DNA of 64,000 nucleotides from Anaerolineae bacterium (GTDB lineage: Bacteria > Chloroflexota > Anaerolineae > UBA1429). Under the pieces are notes generated by a model, which worked only from the letters and a program-made list of their open reading frames with translations, ran no database searches and was not told the DNA's origin. Below are positions 9,325 through 59,280 of the stretch, in pieces. Location of the stretch: NCBI GenBank assembly GCA_034433995.1, contig DAOTZU010000169.1, positions 2,109 to 66,108 of the forward strand, in the 5' to 3' direction. The translations under genes were made by a program, and so were the position numbers. How positions within the stretch are numbered: position 1 is the stretch's first letter; each line of letters begins with the position of its first letter.

Positions 9325-10698
9325 TTACTCCTGCAAAATCTCTTTGGCCTGGGCGATCTGGGCCAGGACGCTGCGGCGCGCCGTGCCGCCGATGACGTTC
9401 CGCGCCTCCACCGAGGCCTCGAAGCTGAACACGCCATAGAGATCCGGCCCAAAGGCCGGCGAGAGGCGCCGGTACTCTGCGTACTCGAGCTTGCTCAACG
9501 GCACGCCCCGCTCCTCGGCCAAGAGCACCGCTTGGCCCACCAGCCTGTGCGCCTCGCGGAAGGGCAGCCCCCGCTTGACGAGGTAATCGGCCAGGTCGGT
9601 GGCCAAAAGGTCCTCGCGCAGCGCGGCCCGCATGCGCTCGGCGTTCACCTCCAAGGTCTCTACCACGCCGGCGACCACGGGCAGCACCCGGGCCAAGGTG
9701 TCCAAAGTATCAAAAAGGGGTTCCTTATCCTCCTGCAGGTCTTTATCGTAGGTGGAGGGGAGGCCCTTGAGCACCACCAGCAGGCGCGTCAGGTTGCCCA
9801 CCAGCCGGCCCGCCTTGCCGCGCACCAACTCCATGCTATCGGGGTTGCGCTTTTGGGGCATGATGCTGGAGCCGGTGGTGTAGCGCTCCGCCAGGCGCAG
9901 AAAGCCAAACTCGGCGCTGGACCACAGGATCACATCCTCCGCCAGGCGGCTGAGGTGCAGCCCCAAGATGGCCGCCCAGCTCAGGGTCTCCAGGATCATG
10001 TCCCGGTCGCTGACGGCATCCATGCTGTTCTCCGTCACGCCGGCAAAGCCCAGCTCCCGCGCCAACGCCTCGCGATCGAGGCCATAGGCGTTGCCGGCCA
10101 ACGCGCCGGCCCCCAAAGGACAGCGGGCCACCCGTTTGAGGAGATCGGCGAGCCGCTCCTGATCCCGCTGGAGCATCCAGAAATACGCGAGCAACCAATG
10201 GCTGAAGCGCACCGGCTGGGCGGGCTGCAGGTGCGTATAGCCGGGCATGATGACCTCGATCTCGGCCTCGGCCTTGCTCACCAGCGCTTGCTGCGCCTGG
10301 CGCAACAAGCGCCCCAGGGCTGGCAGTTCCTCCAACAGGTAAAGGCGCACATCGGTGGCCACCTGGTCGTTGCGGCTGCGGCCGGTGTGGAGCTTGCCCG
10401 CCACCGGCCCCACCAGCTCGCCCAGGCGTCGCTCCACGGCGGTGTGGATGTCCTCATCGCCGGGGGCCAGGACGAACGTGCCCTGGGCGAACTCGGCGGC
10501 CACCTGTTCCAGGCCGGTGATGAGGGTCTGCGCCTCCTCCACCGTGAGCACCCCCGCCCGGGCCAACGCCCGGGCATAGGCGATGCTGCCCTTGATATCC
10601 ACCTGGGCCAAACGCCGATCGAAACCGATGGAGGCGTTCAGCTCCCACAGGAGCGCATCCGTCGGGCCGGTGTAGCGGCCGCCCCAGAGTGTGCCCAT
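9325..10698 (-). CDS. argH: argininosuccinate lyase
   Basis: ORF 9325..10740 (-); start MGTLWGGRY at 10698; fumarate-lyase family signature. Confidence 0.9.
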   Translation of the reverse strand: MGTLWGGRYTGPTDALLWELNASIGFDRRLAQVDIKGSIAYARALARAGVLTVEEAQTLITGLEQVAAEFAQGTFVLAPGDEDIHTAVERRLGELVGPVAGKLHTGRSRNDQVATDVRLYLLEELPALGRLLRQAQQALVSKAEAEIEVIMPGYTHLQPAQPVRFSHWLLAYFWMLQRDQERLADLLKRVARCPLGAGALAGNAYGLDREALARELGFAGVTENSMDAVSDRDMILETLSWAAILGLHLSRLAEDVILWSSAEFGFLRLAERYTTGSSIMPQKRNPDSMELVRGKAGRLVGNLTRLLVVLKGLPSTYDKDLQEDKEPLFDTLDTLARVLPVVAGVVETLEVNAERMRAALREDLLATDLADYLVKRGLPFREAHRLVGQAVLLAEERGVPLSKLEYAEYRRLSPAFGPDLYGVFSFEASVEARNVIGGTARRSVLAQIAQAKEILQE

Positions 10699-46429: not shown

Positions 46430-46768
46430 ATGCGTAAGCAGCAAGGTTTCACCCTGATCGAACTGTTGATCGTCTTGGCCATCCTCGGCATCCTCATCGG
46501 CATCGTGGCCATGAGCGTGGGCGGCCTGAACCAGACGGCCAAGAGCCGGGGCATGAACTCGGAGAAAGAGATCGTCCAGACGGCCATCGACACCTACAAC
46601 ACCCAAGACGTGACGGTGGAGGGCTCGGCCACCATCCCCGCGCGGGCAACGGCGGCCACCATCGGCACGGCGGATACGGATGCTCCCTTCGCCAAGTATC
46701 TGAAGCGCGCCACCAAGTACAAGTACACCTGGGCCGCGGGTGGGGACACCTTGGTGGTCTCTGAATAA
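46430..46768 (+). CDS. pilA: type IV major pilin PilA
   Basis: MRKQQGFTLIELLIVLAILGILIGIV prepilin leader plus N-methyl-Phe motif; RBS GGAGG. Confidence 0.8.
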   Translation: MRKQQGFTLIELLIVLAILGILIGIVAMSVGGLNQTAKSRGMNSEKEIVQTAIDTYNTQDVTVEGSATIPARATAATIGTADTDAPFAKYLKRATKYKYTWAAGGDTLVVSE

Positions 46769-48989: not shown

Positions 48990-50003
48990 CTACCGTTGGT
49001 ATGGGACATTAGGCCTCGTGTGGATCGCCTCCACCAGCACATAGCGATGGTCCGAGCCGGGCATGCGCCCTAACCGCGCCCGCAGGGGCCGCCAGGCGCC
49101 GGCGCAAAAGATATAATCCAGCCGCAGGATGGGCCAGGGCGGGCGCAGCCCAAAGAGGGGCGCGCCCACGGGATAGGTGAACCCCGCCCCCCAACCCACC
49201 TGGCGAAACGCGTCGCGCCAATGGCGGGGGAGCAGGCGATATTCTTGGCATTGGTCGGTGGTGTTCAGATCGCCGAGGAGGAGGGCGTCGCCGGGCAAAG
49301 CGGCCAGAAGCTGCGCCAGGGCGACCATGTCCTCGCGGCGGAAGCGCGTCTCGAACCCACAGGGCAGGCGCAACCCCAGAAAGCGGCGGAAACGGGGAAA
49401 GGCGATGCGCGGGTGGGCGTTGACCAGCCATGTCTCATGCCCATCCAGGCGCAGGCGCGCCACCTGGGTGGGGTTGGCCCGGGGCGCAAGCTGCCGCAGC
49501 TCCACCGCCAGCAAGGGATGGCGACTGAGCAGCCCCATCCCCCGCGAGCCACCGGCCGGAGCCAGGGCCTGGTAGGGGTACGCCTCGGCCAGGAGGCGCT
49601 TGAGGGCCCGGGCGTGCTGAGGACGCAGCTCCTGCAACGCCACCACGTCGGGGGCGGCGGCCAAGATCGTCTGGGCGATGGCCTGGGCGTGGCCGTTGGT
49701 CTTGAGCAGGTTGGCGGTCATCAGGCGGATGGGGCGCTCCTCCGGCCGCGGCCGGCGCCGCTGCCAAGGGATCAGTGGCCAAAGGAAATGGCCGGCATAA
49801 AGGCCCGTTGCCAGGGCCGCCGCCCCAAGATAGAGCGGCGCGCGCACCCAAAGGCCCAGCGGTAGCAACACCAGCACGGGCATGAAGGCCCAGAAGGCGA
49901 CGGGGCTCAGCGCCGCCAGCCACCACGGGCGGGATCCATCCAGCCGCACCCAAAGGAGGTAGGCACTCAGGAGCAGGACGCAGGACCAGGCGAGATACAT
50001 CAT
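48990..50003 (-). CDS. endonuclease/exonuclease/phosphatase (EEP) family membrane-anchored protein
   Basis: N-terminal TM helices, EEP motifs (LMTANL...ALQEL...GDLN..D...SDH). Confidence 0.65.
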   Translation of the reverse strand: MMYLAWSCVLLLSAYLLWVRLDGSRPWWLAALSPVAFWAFMPVLVLLPLGLWVRAPLYLGAAALATGLYAGHFLWPLIPWQRRRPRPEERPIRLMTANLLKTNGHAQAIAQTILAAAPDVVALQELRPQHARALKRLLAEAYPYQALAPAGGSRGMGLLSRHPLLAVELRQLAPRANPTQVARLRLDGHETWLVNAHPRIAFPRFRRFLGLRLPCGFETRFRREDMVALAQLLAALPGDALLLGDLNTTDQCQEYRLLPRHWRDAFRQVGWGAGFTYPVGAPLFGLRPPWPILRLDYIFCAGAWRPLRARLGRMPGSDHRYVLVEAIHTRPNVPYQR

Positions 50004-50031: not shown

Positions 50032-51657
50032 TCAATCTTCCACATCCATGGCGAGGGAGAGAGGATTTTGGCGGCCGCCCGCGGGTTTGGCTCTAGGCGC
50101 GCGCTGAAAGGTAATGTTCACCCCTTGGGCCGGGGGATAATCCACCCTTTTCCCTGCCAGGAGCTCGGCGATGGTGAGGATCTGGAGGCGGGGATGCTGG
50201 CCCCAGGGGGAGGTGTAAAAGCCGGCGCTGGCCGCCTCGGCCCGCATGGCCGGGGAGGGCTCCTGCAGCGTGATCAGCACGCCGATCTCGGCCTGCTCTC
50301 GGTTGACCACGCCCCACAGGTCGCGCAGATGGGCCACGGTGGTATGGCCGGCCTTGACAGAAAAGACGATCTGCTTGGTTTTGCCGTTGGGATCATCGTG
50401 GAAATAGAGCCGCCCATCTACGCCTTTATCGGCACCCCGTTTCCCGGCCGCGGGACGGGCGCCCACCAGCCCCAGGGCCCACCATTGGAACTGGAAGGGA
50501 TCTTGCGCAGCCAATTCCTCGGCATCGGCCAGGGTGACGGGCTCGCCGATCACCTCATAGTGGACGCTATCGCCAAAGGTGTCGCTCAGGCGCCGTTTGA
50601 TCAAGTTAATGGCCAGGTGGGTAATATCAATGCCGATCCAGCGGCGGTTGAGCTTTTGCGCGGCGGCAATGGTGGTGCCACAGCCGCAGAAAGGATCCAA
50701 GACGATATCGCCCTCGTTGCTGGAGGCGCGGATGATGCGCTCCAAAAGGGCCACAGGTTTTTGGGTGGGGTAGCCGAGGCGTTCTACAGCTTGCGCGCCG
50801 ACAGGGGGAATATCCGTGATGACTGACCTGATCAGCGTCCCCTTTTGCTCATGCAAATAGCGTTTGAGATAGGGCCTGCCCGTTTTGCTCCAGAACAATC
50901 TCCCGTCTTGATCCAGCATTTCCAGTTTTTCGCGCACGACGCGCCACCCCCAACGGGGCGTATAGCCTTTGTATTCGTAGGTCAGATTGGGCCTAGCTCC
51001 CATCGTGGCTGAGCGGATGATGTGATCCAGACGATACCTCCCTCGCTCGTCAGTATAGCGGTAAAAACTTTTAACGTAATCTACGCTGTGCGGAATATAG
51101 ACCCGGTTCCAAGTTGCCTGTTCAGTTTTGACATAATAGAGTATGACATCATGCACGGCTCCCCATTTCTTGGAATCATTGTGGCTGCTTGTGCGTTGCC
51201 AGATAAGCTCATTGCGAAATTGACGCGGTCCAAACACCGCGTCCATCAGCAGGCGCAGATAGGGGCTGGCCGTGGGGTCGCAATGGAGATAGATGCTGCC
51301 GGTGGGCTTGAGCACGCGGTGCAGCTCCACCAGGCGGGGCGCCATCATGGCCAAATAAGCCATCATGTTGCTGCCGCCCAGCAAGCGATAGAAGGCTTGC
51401 AAAGTCTGGGAGACCTGGCCGCCTCGTTCCACCATCTCTTGGTAGGCGCGGGCCGCGGCCTGGTCCCACGTCCAAGTATCCTCAAAAGCTTTGATCTGGG
51501 CGGCAGCCTGAGAGCCGTTATGCTCGGCAAAGAGGACGTTGTAGGTGGCGTTACTGTTAAAGGGGGGATCGAGGTAGATCAGATCTACCGACTCATCTTT
51601 GATATAGCGCTGGAGGATCTCCAAATTATCGCCGTAGTAAAGCAGATTCTCGGCCAT
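50032..51657 (-). CDS. beta-class N6-adenine/N4-cytosine DNA methyltransferase with C-terminal Mrr-cat-like (PD-(D/E)xK) domain
   Basis: Motif IV DPPF (LIYLDPPFNSN) precedes motif I (VLDPFCGCGTT); C-terminus GADKGVDGRLYF...IVFSVK; visibly lower GC than neighbours. Confidence 0.8.
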   Translation of the reverse strand: MAENLLYYGDNLEILQRYIKDESVDLIYLDPPFNSNATYNVLFAEHNGSQAAAQIKAFEDTWTWDQAAARAYQEMVERGGQVSQTLQAFYRLLGGSNMMAYLAMMAPRLVELHRVLKPTGSIYLHCDPTASPYLRLLMDAVFGPRQFRNELIWQRTSSHNDSKKWGAVHDVILYYVKTEQATWNRVYIPHSVDYVKSFYRYTDERGRYRLDHIIRSATMGARPNLTYEYKGYTPRWGWRVVREKLEMLDQDGRLFWSKTGRPYLKRYLHEQKGTLIRSVITDIPPVGAQAVERLGYPTQKPVALLERIIRASSNEGDIVLDPFCGCGTTIAAAQKLNRRWIGIDITHLAINLIKRRLSDTFGDSVHYEVIGEPVTLADAEELAAQDPFQFQWWALGLVGARPAAGKRGADKGVDGRLYFHDDPNGKTKQIVFSVKAGHTTVAHLRDLWGVVNREQAEIGVLITLQEPSPAMRAEAASAGFYTSPWGQHPRLQILTIAELLAGKRVDYPPAQGVNITFQRAPRAKPAGGRQNPLSLAMDVED

Positions 51658-51790
51658 GGAAGACCACCTCAGATTATCTCACGGGTATTATACACCATAA
51701 ACGTGAGCGATGTCATTTGGGGCCACGAGGTCGCCCTTTCCCGCATGGAGCCGCGGCGCGATAAGCGCGCACGTTCTCCGCGTGTGGCGG

Positions 51791-56617: not shown

Positions 56618-56820
56618 TGTCGTTTAACCCATCCGCTGTGCCCGCTGGCAGGATGCCACTGTGTTGACGGGCCCCTACCACAAGGTTTAACGAACCTCTA
56701 ACCTCCCCTTAACTCTCTGTTAGCTCTGGCTTAATGGACCTGTGGCATGATTCTAAAGGAAGAGGGTTTTCTCGCAGCGTGATGATAGGAACCAGTTCTT
56801 CGCCGAAGGAAAAGGCACAT

Positions 56821-59280
56821 ATGGCCAAAGCCGATCTCCATGTCCATAGCAAATTCTCTGACCGCCCATCTGAATGGTGGTGGCAGCGCCTGGGGGCTGC
56901 CGAATCCTATACCGAGCCCGAATTCATCTATCGCACTGCCAAAGCCCAGGGTATGGATTGGGTCACCATCACCGATCACGACCAGATCGCCGGCGCACTC
57001 CAACTCCAAGAGGCGCATCCTCGCGATGTCTTGACCGGCGTCGAGACGACGGCATTTTTCCCCGAAGATGGCTGTAAAGTGCATGTCCTGGTCTGGGGTT
57101 TGAGCGAGGCCGAGTTTCGCGATACGCAGCGTCTGCGCACCAACATCTATGATCTGCGCGACTATCTGCACGAGCATAACCTGGCCCACGCTGTGGCCCA
57201 CGCCACCTTTGCCGTCAATGGCCGGCTGACCCTATCCCATCTGGAGAAACTGATCCTGCTCTTTAACGTCTTTGAGGGGCTGAACGGCGGACGCAACCGC
57301 CTCAACAATGAGACCTGGACGCGCATCCTGCGCGGTTTGACGCCGGAACATTTGGAGGATCTTTATCACCAATACCGCATCGCGCCGGTGGGCGAGGAGC
57401 CTTGGATCAAGGGGTTCACCGGCGGCTCGGACGACCACGGGGGCATCTTTATCGGGCGCACTTATACCGTTGCCGATGGCGCCACGCCGACGGCTTTTCT
57501 GCGCAATGTGATGCAGAGGCGCTCCTGCGCCGAAGGGCGGCAAAACGATTACCAATCGTTGGCCTTTACCCTCTACAAGATCGGCTACGACTATGCCCGG
57601 GCCAAGGGCGAAGAGCGGCCCAGCCCCATCCTGACGCAGCTTACGGAGATGGTCTTTGACCGGCATGCGCCGACCATCGCGGAGAAGCTGCGGGTGCGGG
57701 CTTTTAAATCCATCAGCAAAAAAGAGCACAAGATTGAGCGCACCTGTCTGGAGCTGATCCATGATCTGCAGGTGCACCATCGCGCGCCGGTAGACGAGAA
57801 GCTGGCCCTCGTCTATCACAAAGCGGCCGGAATCGTGGACGAGTTTGTCAAGATCTTTTGCGAGACCGTCGTGCACGATGTGAAAAAGGGCCAAGTGGTG
57901 CGTTTGGTGCGCGATCTATCTTCTTCTTTACCCGCCGTGTTGCTCTCGGTGCCTTTTCTTTCCACCTTGAAACATCTTTATCAAGGCCGAGCACTGCTCA
58001 ACCAGTTGGAGGTGCGTTTTAGCCCCGGTCGTCCCCGCCAGAAGCGCGTGCTTTGGTTCACCGATACCCTGACCGATCTGAACGGCGTGGCCATCACCTT
58101 GCGCAAGGTCGGCTGGCTGGCGCATGTCACCGGCCGCCAACTGCAGATCGTCACCTCGCTCGACCCGAACCAGAGCGAGACGAACCTCCCTCCCAATGTG
58201 ATCAATCTTCCCACAGCTCACGCGTTCAATTTGCCCACGTATGAGAGCTATGCCATGCGCATCCCCTCGCTCCTCGACGCTCTAGAGCGTCTCTATCCGT
58301 TTGAGCCCGATGAGGTCCTGATCTCCACCCCCGGCCCCATCGGGCTCTTGGGGCTATTGGTCGCGCGGCTCTTCAATGCCCGCAGTGTGGGCATCTATCA
58401 CACCGATTTCACGCTGCAAGCCAAAGAGATCACTGGCGAGGAGACGATTGCGAATCTCCTGGAGGCCTATACCCGCTGGTTCTATTCCTCGGTGGATGAG
58501 ATTCGCGTGCCCACTCTGGAATACCGGCGCATCCTGACGGCCCGCGGCCTGGATCCTACCCGCATGAAGCTTTTTCGCCGGGGGATCGATGCCGAGCTCT
58601 TCCGCCCCAGGCCCGAAGGGCGGGCCTATTTGGCCGAACATTTCAACCTCAGGCGTGGGCCAACCCTGCTTTACGTGGGGCGCATTTCCAAGGACAAGGA
58701 TTTGGATTTTTTGGGGCAGGTCTATGTGCGGCTCTTGACCCGGCATCCCGATCTCAACCTGGTCATCACCGGCGACGGCCCCTATCTGGCTGAACTGCGC
58801 GAACGCTGGCGACATCTGCCGCGAGCCGTTTTCACCGGGCGGCTCGCCCATGAGGAGCTGCCGCTGGTGTACTCTGGCGCGGATGTGTTTATCTTCCCCA
58901 GCATCACCGATACCTTTGGGCTGGTCGTTTTGGAGGCTCAGGCCTGTGGGCTGCCGGCCGTCGTCTCCAACGTGGGCGGGCCCCAGGAGATCGTGACTCC
59001 TCACCAGACCGGCTATGTGTTGCCCGCCCGCGATCTGGAGGCTTGGGTGGCCCAAGTGGACGAGCTTTTGCTCATGCGTGAGGCACGGCCACGCGATTAT
59101 GAGGCCCTCCAGGTGGCGGCCCGTGAAATGGTTTTGCATCACTGCGATTGGGACGCTGTCTTGCGTGATCTTTTGGGCGAGGAACCCGGAGCCGAAAGCG
59201 CGGAACCGGCGGCGTCCCCAGAGGCGCAAAAGAATAGCCAGTGGCTCGTCTCGCCCTTGCCGGTAGCGGCCGGATCGTGA
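56821..59280 (+). CDS. fusion of PHP-domain metal-dependent phosphoesterase and family-4 glycosyltransferase (GT4)
   Basis: ADLHVHSKFSD...ITDHD PHP motifs; C-terminal GT-B signature (E...GLVVLEAQACGLPAV). Confidence 0.8.
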   Translation: MAKADLHVHSKFSDRPSEWWWQRLGAAESYTEPEFIYRTAKAQGMDWVTITDHDQIAGALQLQEAHPRDVLTGVETTAFFPEDGCKVHVLVWGLSEAEFRDTQRLRTNIYDLRDYLHEHNLAHAVAHATFAVNGRLTLSHLEKLILLFNVFEGLNGGRNRLNNETWTRILRGLTPEHLEDLYHQYRIAPVGEEPWIKGFTGGSDDHGGIFIGRTYTVADGATPTAFLRNVMQRRSCAEGRQNDYQSLAFTLYKIGYDYARAKGEERPSPILTQLTEMVFDRHAPTIAEKLRVRAFKSISKKEHKIERTCLELIHDLQVHHRAPVDEKLALVYHKAAGIVDEFVKIFCETVVHDVKKGQVVRLVRDLSSSLPAVLLSVPFLSTLKHLYQGRALLNQLEVRFSPGRPRQKRVLWFTDTLTDLNGVAITLRKVGWLAHVTGRQLQIVTSLDPNQSETNLPPNVINLPTAHAFNLPTYESYAMRIPSLLDALERLYPFEPDEVLISTPGPIGLLGLLVARLFNARSVGIYHTDFTLQAKEITGEETIANLLEAYTRWFYSSVDEIRVPTLEYRRILTARGLDPTRMKLFRRGIDAELFRPRPEGRAYLAEHFNLRRGPTLLYVGRISKDKDLDFLGQVYVRLLTRHPDLNLVITGDGPYLAELRERWRHLPRAVFTGRLAHEELPLVYSGADVFIFPSITDTFGLVVLEAQACGLPAVVSNVGGPQEIVTPHQTGYVLPARDLEAWVAQVDELLLMREARPRDYEALQVAAREMVLHHCDWDAVLRDLLGEEPGAESAEPAASPEAQKNSQWLVSPLPVAAGS

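Follow-up and report, generated by a model that had tools for sequence, protein, structure and literature searches.

The window analysed here is a 64,000-nucleotide stretch of contig DAOTZU010000169.1 (positions 2,109 to 66,108; assembly GCA_034433995.1) from an Anaerolineae bacterium of the Chloroflexota. Its reverse strand carries the gene for a solitary beta-class DNA methyltransferase (MTase), whose protein continues beyond the catalytic core into a nuclease-fold domain and a predicted disordered tail (Table 1). The gene stands alone amid housekeeping-type genes, with a fusion of CofD to phosphoglucomutase (CofD-PGM) upstream and an EEP-family protein of high G+C content (GC) downstream. 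The full-length AlphaFold2 (AF2) model predicted for the 541-residue protein has a mean local confidence (pLDDT) of 80 and a predicted template modelling score (pTM) of 0.76. An identical protein in the same context is found on 6 contigs from several metagenome samples, and the MTase is thus a stable chromosomal gene of this population.

The MTase part of the protein matches Pfam PF01555 (N6_N4_Mtase) over residues 24-354 with 153.8 bits against a curated threshold of 26.7, and also matches PHROG 67 (‘DNA methyltransferase’). Its best solved sequence relatives are the Type III Mod subunits 6k0w and 4zcf and the MTase CcrM (6pbd). The motifs follow the circularly permuted beta-class order, in which motif IV lies N-terminal to motif I with the variable region, a target-recognition domain (TRD), between them. 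Among 164 family members the TRDs form 20 clusters, one of which is dominant. The Asp form of motif IV is typical of N6-adenine amino-MTases; because the window enzyme has this form, an N6-adenine target is probable and the enzyme is most likely N6-adenine specific. Profile and motif evidence together establish the window gene as an intact beta-class amino-DNA MTase with an internal TRD. The original prediction, made from the letters of the DNA alone, had placed a beta-class amino-MTase with DPPF before FxGxG at 50032-51657, and this holds down to the exact coordinates, the invariance of both motifs and the Pfam score.

About 175 residues lie beyond the MTase core. This C-terminal region contains the pattern G408-A-D410-K-G412-V-D414-G415 followed by S433-V-K435, and it matches the Pfam family Mrr_cat with 30.6 bits (threshold 21). 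The top Pfam model is NA-iREase1 (PF22722; 36.1 bits against 27), aligned over profile positions 19-90 of 106, and the two matches overlap. Comparison of the C-terminal profile with PDB sequences returned only the overlap with MTase motif I and no nuclease match, so fold comparison was used. The closest structural neighbours found in this way are AspBHI and MspJI, and RPB5-type dead folds are also among the neighbours. The extra C-terminal residues with a GxDxGxDG...(S)xK pattern, and their likeness to Mrr_cat and other PD-(D/E)xK cores, were both anticipated by the original prediction; the residues are present, the Mrr_cat score is above threshold and structure comparison gives a nuclease fold.

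The residues of this nuclease-type site can be compared with those of E. coli Mrr. Alignment with hhalign places Q391 at the Glu of the helix-1 ‘RFE’, D410 and D414 in ‘GDGGIDG’, and S433-V-K435 at Q-A-K, in a register that is consistent with the motifs but statistically weak (E 0.11). Enzymes of the Mrr superfamily have the site D...(Q/E)xK; in MspJI the substitutions D334A and Q355A each abolish cleavage (PMC2938202). The window copy reads Q...D...SxK where Mrr reads E...D...QxK, and thus falls short of the complete Mrr-type constellation. Across the family, D414 is present in 387 of 391 members and D410 in 381 of 389; position 433 is Ser in 356 and Gln in 34 of 391, and position 391 is Gln in 340 and Glu in 27 of 371. 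When 439 unique family domains are sorted by all four positions, 349 are Q-D-S-K, 42 are Q-D-Q-K, 20 are E-D-S-K and 21 are E-D-Q-K. E391 co-occurs with Q433 (odds ratio 8.7, relatedness ignored), and the canonical residues are commoner in viral contigs, where the full E-D-Q-K is found in 11 of 77. From these alignments, the family looks like one whose ancestor had a functional Mrr-type site, two of whose four residues have since been lost in most members. At helix 1, Glu is replaced by the isosteric Gln, a change typical of active sites that have been retired.

The protein ends in a predicted unstructured terminus (pLDDT below 50 for residues 525-541 of the AF2 model), and its last ~20 residues read GGRQNPLSLAMDVED. 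The tail starts with a basic patch in which T516, A520 and P521 are conserved; this basic segment has a net charge of about +3.8 across the family. It is followed by a putative motif resembling those that bind the beta sliding clamp. The consensus of such motifs is QL(S/D)LF or QLxLF, found at unstructured C-termini (PMC9690074; PMC4549789), the key features being Gln at position 1 plus a hydrophobic residue at both position 4 and position 5 (PMC4549789). The window copy has QNPLSL, in which Q530, L533 and L535 supply Gln at position 1 and hydrophobic residues at position 4 and at position 5 or 6. Tails of other family members end in QLSLL, QLPL, QKDLF, QPGMF or QTEMGL.

This ending recurs across the family. 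A Q-anchored pattern occurs in a fixed register in 85 of 235 unique tails, compared with 5.8 +/- 2.3 in shuffled tails, a control that ignores relatedness, and it is ~9-fold denser in the tails than in the rest of the same proteins. An independent and more divergent viral set has the motif in 35 of 78 tails (5.6 +/- 2.1 when shuffled); in 30 of these 35 it ends 0-1 residues from the C-terminus, while the linkers vary in length and sequence. When motifs were sought de novo, without a prior, the result was [A/G]-E-Q-L-x-L-F, whose log-odds were twice those of shuffled tails. Homologs from actinophages end in EEQMEKLF, EEQTEKLF, DKTETLF and EQSTLFDTA. These endings match the actinobacterial form of the clamp motif, [EK]-[LY]-[TR]-L-F, seen for example in Streptomyces NucS, which ends in KLRLF (PMC11109965). 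A literature search found no bacterial or phage DNA MTase reported with a clamp-binding motif.

The family to which the window protein belongs is very large. The 120 matches listed by a protein search all extend over the full length at 60-74% identity and, with one exception, share the same architecture; they come from metagenome-assembled genomes (MAGs) of Chloroflexota, Acidobacteriota and Actinomycetota. The C-terminal domain alone matches 3261 clusters at 50% identity (E <= 0.001). A scan of viral contigs gave at least 554 relatives, the best 80 of which cover the full length with 50-64% identity. Full-length homologs at 45-48% identity are also found in cultured temperate actinophages, namely the Streptomyces OzzyJ group and Mycobacterium phages Dori, Mask and Amgine, and the homolog adjoins or lies near the integrase in every phage region inspected. 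The only recurrent neighbours in 93 homolog loci are tyrosine integrases (16 loci), large serine recombinases (6 loci), S24/CI-type repressors, HTH_3 regulators and lysozymes. Of 80 viral loci, 44 have the MTase homolog less than 4 kb away from a contig end.

No helicase, nuclease or specificity gene recurs in the 93 homolog loci, and none lies within 3 genes of the MTase. A hidden partner was considered and rejected, as the unannotated open reading frames (ORFs) abutting the MTase in loci L005 and L011 are mutually unrelated (E 3.4). The original statement that no separate restriction gene flanks the MTase is thus confirmed for the window, where the neighbours are CofD-PGM and EEP, and it extends to the homolog loci. 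Neighbours of the integrase and repressor type, together with the lack of a travelling partner, describe a solitary MTase typical of temperate-phage lysogeny modules. Homology and gene neighbourhood place the window copy in a very large family, mainly of temperate-phage lysogeny modules, of which it is a solitary, horizontally acquired representative. The names given to family proteins in databases vary between ‘DNA methyltransferase’ and ‘restriction endonuclease’, and the second label is probably wrong for most members. The architecture is already catalogued, unremarked, under these names and PHROG 67, and the family is uncharacterised. What appears to be new is the conservation of a tail resembling clamp-binding peptides, together with the stepwise decay of the nuclease site. 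The original prediction did not include the size and temperate-phage character of the family, the lysogeny-module setting of the homologs or the conserved clamp-like ending.

Composition supports a foreign origin of the window gene. Using the 35 other confidently framed genes of the window as reference, the MTase ORF has a GC of 0.585 against 0.644 +/- 0.024 (z -2.4), and its GC at third codon positions (GC3) is 0.712 against 0.823 +/- 0.034 (z -3.2), the lowest of all window genes compared. Its synonymous-codon likelihood is only mildly low (z -1.3). The lower GC proposed in the original prediction is therefore sustained and the deviant codon usage only in part. Its proposal of horizontal acquisition agrees both with the GC3 anomaly and with gene content, as none of 29 related Anaerolineae loci with a CofD-PGM ortholog (73-81% identity) has the MTase downstream of it. 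A non-nuclease fold combined with normal GC, which was checked as the outcome that would speak against the original prediction, was not found. Only short, chance-level matches were found in a search for terminal or direct repeats flanking the window MTase gene. Judging from composition and gene order, this gene was most likely acquired horizontally as a single gene with its own promoter; the putative sigma-70-like promoter is the 1 site found in a scan of 2.1 kb, compared with 0.7 expected. GC3 is uneven inside the ORF, being 0.687 for residues 1-358 and 0.761 for the C-terminal domain, and 300-nt windows within the first part drop to 0.51 GC. This unevenness is compatible with a mosaic history or with differing amino-acid constraints.

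Table 1. Positions of the MTase gene, its functional segments and the adjoining features in the window.
Feature	Position	Strand	Evidence or remark
Complete ORF, 541 aa plus stop: solitary beta-class DNA methyltransferase, C-terminal nuclease-fold domain, disordered tail	50032..51657	-	ORF list
MTase catalytic core and TRD, residues 1-364, Pfam N6_N4_Mtase	50566..51657	-	E 8.6e-45
Motif IV, D30-P-P-F33, catalytic	51559..51570	-	invariant in homolog alignment
Target-recognition region, ~residues 155-295	50773..51195	-	most variable segment among homologs (alignment columns 200-330)
Motif I, F323-C-G-C-G327, S-adenosylmethionine (AdoMet) binding	50677..50691	-	F323, G325, G327 invariant in homolog alignment
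Mrr-type PD-(D/E)xK (restriction-endonuclease-like) fold domain, residues 376-505	50143..50532	-	
Q391, helix-1 position, Glu in Mrr	50485..50487	-	hhalign
D410-K-G-V-D414, equals Mrr GDGGIDG; D414 at core metal-binding Asp position	50416..50430	-	hhalign
S433-V-K435, (D/E/Q)xK position; Ser where MspJI/Mrr need Q/E	50353..50361	-	hhalign
Conserved basic patch T516-F-Q-R-A-P-R-A-K524, start of low-confidence tail	50086..50112	-	family consensus VTFKxAPKAK
Putative beta-sliding-clamp-binding-like motif Q530-N-P-L533-S-L535, hexapeptide form QxxLxL, then acidic end AMDVED	50053..50070	-	
Shine-Dalgarno sequence GAGGTGG	51664-51670	-	sequence read directly
Putative sigma-70-like promoter, ATGACA-18 nt-TATAAT, 11/12 matches	51687..51716	-	promoter scan; function inferred
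EEP-family (PF03372) protein, hydrophobic, apparently membrane-spanning N-terminal segments; GC 0.697	48990-50003	-	
CofD/YvcK-like domain (PF01933) fused to complete phosphoglucomutase/phosphomannomutase (domains I-IV), 756 aa	51791-54061	-	

Several known systems share parts of this architecture. Residues 4-339 of the window protein align to the Type III Mod subunit of H. pylori (6k0w), and the beta-class motif order and internal TRD are common to both it and EcoP15I (4zcf). Unlike these, the window protein continues after motif I into an Mrr-type fold and tail, and no res (helicase-nuclease) gene is adjacent in the window or the 93 homolog loci; with no Res partner, the protein does not qualify as a Type III enzyme. 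CcrM is likewise a solitary beta-class adenine MTase and a sequence relative around motif I. Its C-terminal domain has an extra sequence-nonspecific DNA-binding segment, whereas the window protein has a PD-(D/E)xK fold there, which CcrM lacks. The NCBIfam CcrM model gives 78 bits against a cutoff of 830, so the window MTase is not a CcrM ortholog. Compared with Mrr, MspJI and AspBHI (Mrr_cat), the window protein has Ser for Q/E and Gln for the helix-1 Glu, and an MTase at the place of their N-terminal modification reader. NA-iREase1, the highest-scoring Pfam model for the C-terminal domain, stands for NACHT-associated inactive restriction endonuclease 1 and is described as catalytically inactive; however, neither the protein nor its recurrent neighbours include a NACHT/STAND NTPase, and a literature search found no paper using the name. 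The closest cultured relatives, annotated ‘DNA methylase’, are Dori gp42, Amgine gp37 and OzzyJ gp49, which share the three-part architecture and a C-terminal ...LF motif at 45-48% identity but keep the helix-1 Glu (E-D-S-K) and lie beside phage integrases. No characterisation of these three proteins was found. NucS/EndoMS lacks an MTase domain and, as a mismatch endonuclease, has its catalytic residues intact, and in both respects it differs from the window protein; it resembles the phage proteins in its tail.

A proposed functional analogue is found in eukaryotes, where DNMT1 carries a PCNA-binding peptide and newly replicated DNA is methylated preferentially (PMC9690074). DNMT1 differs in being a C5-cytosine MTase with a PCNA-interacting (PIP) box in place of QLxLF, and in binding PCNA and not the beta clamp. 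The window protein may be read as a horizontally acquired solitary phage-family MTase with a degenerate nuclease fold and a tail that docks on the beta clamp, DnaN; we give this joint reading a probability of about 0.45. The MTase core and internal TRD would recognise a short target and transfer methyl groups to it from AdoMet. The degenerate nuclease-fold domain would serve as a non-catalytic DNA-binding or oligomerisation module in which the invariant Asp/Lys pocket is still used, and the adjacent basic patch would aid non-specific DNA affinity. The disordered C-terminal peptide (QNPLSL; E-Q-L-x-L-F in the family) would dock into the hydrophobic cleft of the clamp, so that the enzyme could ride clamps left on new DNA and promptly methylate nascent phage or host DNA. 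A phage would thereby gain fast self-protection of replicating and progeny DNA against restriction, and in a lysogen the enzyme would re-mark the host chromosome. The same idea can be extended tentatively to the whole family, as a very large set of mostly temperate-phage MTases tethered to the beta clamp through a C-terminal QLxLF-type peptide, in which the full E-D-Q-K minority would be clamp-guided single-chain restriction-modification (R-M) enzymes.

Several observations weigh against this reading. Conservation at ~99% of D414 and K435, together with that of acidic residues near them in sequence (D410, D446, E454 and E474), exceeds what a pure scaffold needs and is compatible with residual or altered catalysis. 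Enzymes of the Cfr10I type are active with SxK plus a relocated Glu. For these reasons, the nuclease fold is judged only somewhat more probably non-catalytic than catalytic in the window copy, and the Mrr register on which the comparison depends is the weak one given above. As for the tail, only ~37% of unique tails carry the strict Q-anchored motif (the de novo model has the Gln in 59%). Clamp motifs are short, degenerate sequences, and relatedness was ignored in the shuffling controls. For the acquisition, the EEP and glycosyltransferase (GT) neighbours are likewise absent from the 29 CofD-PGM loci, which indicates a variable region and not a clean empty or insertion site.

The original prediction had offered two alternatives, a single-chain modification-plus-nuclease enzyme and an orphan MTase whose nuclease fold is degenerate and serves DNA binding. 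Q391 and S433 tip the evidence towards the orphan MTase, and the single-chain nuclease is less favoured. As a single-chain R-M enzyme (Type IIG/IIC-like, with a Type III Mod-like MTase), the protein would cut unmethylated target with an active Mrr-type nuclease while the MTase protects self, and the clamp motif would target replicating invader DNA or give one-dimensional sliding in place of the Res motor. Adjoining an integrase, such an enzyme could be a one-gene prophage device for superinfection exclusion. Prophage defence genes are often found near the integrase, as the homologs here are. The protein does combine nuclease fold and MTase in one polypeptide, as Type IIG/IIC enzymes do; the fold is genuine and its nearest structures are active enzymes, D414 and K435 vary in almost no member, and position 433 alternates between Ser and the Mrr-type Gln only. 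Complete E-D-Q-K sites in 21 of 439 members, enriched in viral contigs (11 of 77), and the activity of Cfr10I with SxK point the same way. Shedu homologs fused to N6_N4_MTase have also been proposed as R-M equivalents (bioRxiv 10.1101/2023.08.10.552793). However, neither the helix-1 Glu nor the Q/E of QxK is present in the window copy, and the Q355A mutant of MspJI does not cleave; the best Pfam match of the window domain is an ‘inactive’ endonuclease family, and many phages carry members of the MTase family, where an unregulated nuclease would be risky. We know of no characterised beta-class MTase with a C-terminal nuclease. For the window copy, a working single-chain R-M enzyme is unlikely.

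A plain orphan MTase, in which the nuclease fold is a non-catalytic DNA-binding domain and the tail is a motif for another partner, a degron or lineage-inherited sequence, draws on all the support for the MTase and the degenerate site. The shortness and weakness of clamp motifs and the minority of tails that fit the strict pattern favour it, as does a sub-clade whose tails end in another peptide (9 of 387 tails), which shows that the tails can evolve other peptides. Against a non-clamp tail, the prior-free motif equals the QLxLF consensus, the motif keeps its place at the very C-terminus through changes in linker length and sequence, its density is ~9-fold higher in tails than in the rest of these proteins, and in actinophages it takes the actinobacterial form; we consider a tail of another kind doubtful. 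A modification-dependent (Type IV, Mrr-like) nuclease fused to an MTase, cutting foreign-methylated DNA, was also raised as a variant in the original prediction, and the nearest structural neighbours AspBHI and MspJI are indeed modification-dependent. Their specificity, however, resides in a separate N-terminal reader domain (PMC2938202). The window protein has no reader domain, its remainder being MTase, and lacks the catalytic Q/E. Because the reader is missing this variant fails, and it is very improbable.

The usual account of how bacterial and phage MTases manage to follow replication invokes only processivity or expression level. Should the tail bind DnaN, this abundant phage family would provide a prokaryotic counterpart of the DNMT1-PCNA coupling of methylation to replication. 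The tail would also give a simple mutable handle on replication-coupled methylation, on phage escape from restriction and on the epigenetic marking of the host by prophages. Tractable systems for the clamp idea are phage Dori in M. smegmatis and OzzyJ-type phages in Streptomyces. The family further offers a natural series from complete to degenerate Mrr-type site, E-D-Q-K, then Q-D-Q-K or E-D-S-K, then Q-D-S-K, which is useful for learning how nuclease domains retire into binding modules.

The SSB-tip-like ending of the sub-clade mentioned above has the acidic form ...D-(E/Q)-P-(F/L/I), compared with 0.5 tails expected from shuffles. It resembles the C-terminal tip of the single-stranded-DNA-binding protein SSB, DDDIPF. 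The sub-clade includes P0029, P0044, P0068, P0095, P0105, P0195, P0232 and L047, most of which have an upstream L-D-F element. The ending was rejected as a family trait, being a feature of this sub-clade. Two metagenome proteins, P0342 and P0295, have a third, C-terminal Peptidase_M78 (ImmA/IrrE-type) domain after the MTase and nuclease fold.

Some homolog loci depart from the usual arrangement. An IS1-type DDE transposase lies directly upstream of the MTase or overlaps it in L007 (7124-7984), L013 (7156-8004), L081 (~9717-10506) and L095 (~1490-1699), and those of L007 and L013 are 68% identical to each other. In L013 the transposase-MTase unit is flanked by two fragments of one Acetyltransf_3 gene, a layout which suggests that the unit was transposed. 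The MTase was considered as transposon cargo and this was rejected: the transposase is linked in only ~4 of 99 loci and absent from the window, so the association is occasional and not defining. Two ORFs with a 4-nt overlap, one of 329 aa for the MTase and one of 215 aa for the nuclease fold, replace the single gene in L130 (4015-5648) and L131, and this split form is seen on 5 contigs. It was rejected as proof of a separable R subunit. The L130 break lies inside motif I and so looks like a frameshift; from the reading frames, the split genes are probably frameshifted pseudogenes.

In the window, the EEP gene begins 28 bp past the MTase stop with no terminator between them, and it may be co-transcribed by read-through. 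It was rejected as a cognate nuclease, having native GC and hydrophobic N-terminal segments and never lying beside MTase homologs. The CofD-PGM fusion is kept at 73-81% identity in the 29 loci, which come from Anaerolineae/Chloroflexota MAGs, and an aldehyde:ferredoxin oxidoreductase gene lies upstream of it in ~9 of the 29, as in the window. Farther away, ORF 56734-59280 (+) has the second-lowest GC3 in the window (0.724) and may be another acquired gene; its counterpart in locus L001 is annotated as a GT4-type glycosyltransferase. ORF 46430-46768 (+), of 112 aa, sits between a TMEM260-like glycosyltransferase gene and the upstream genes, and has an N-terminal prepilin-type methylation motif, with Pfam N_methyl on the same gene in L001.

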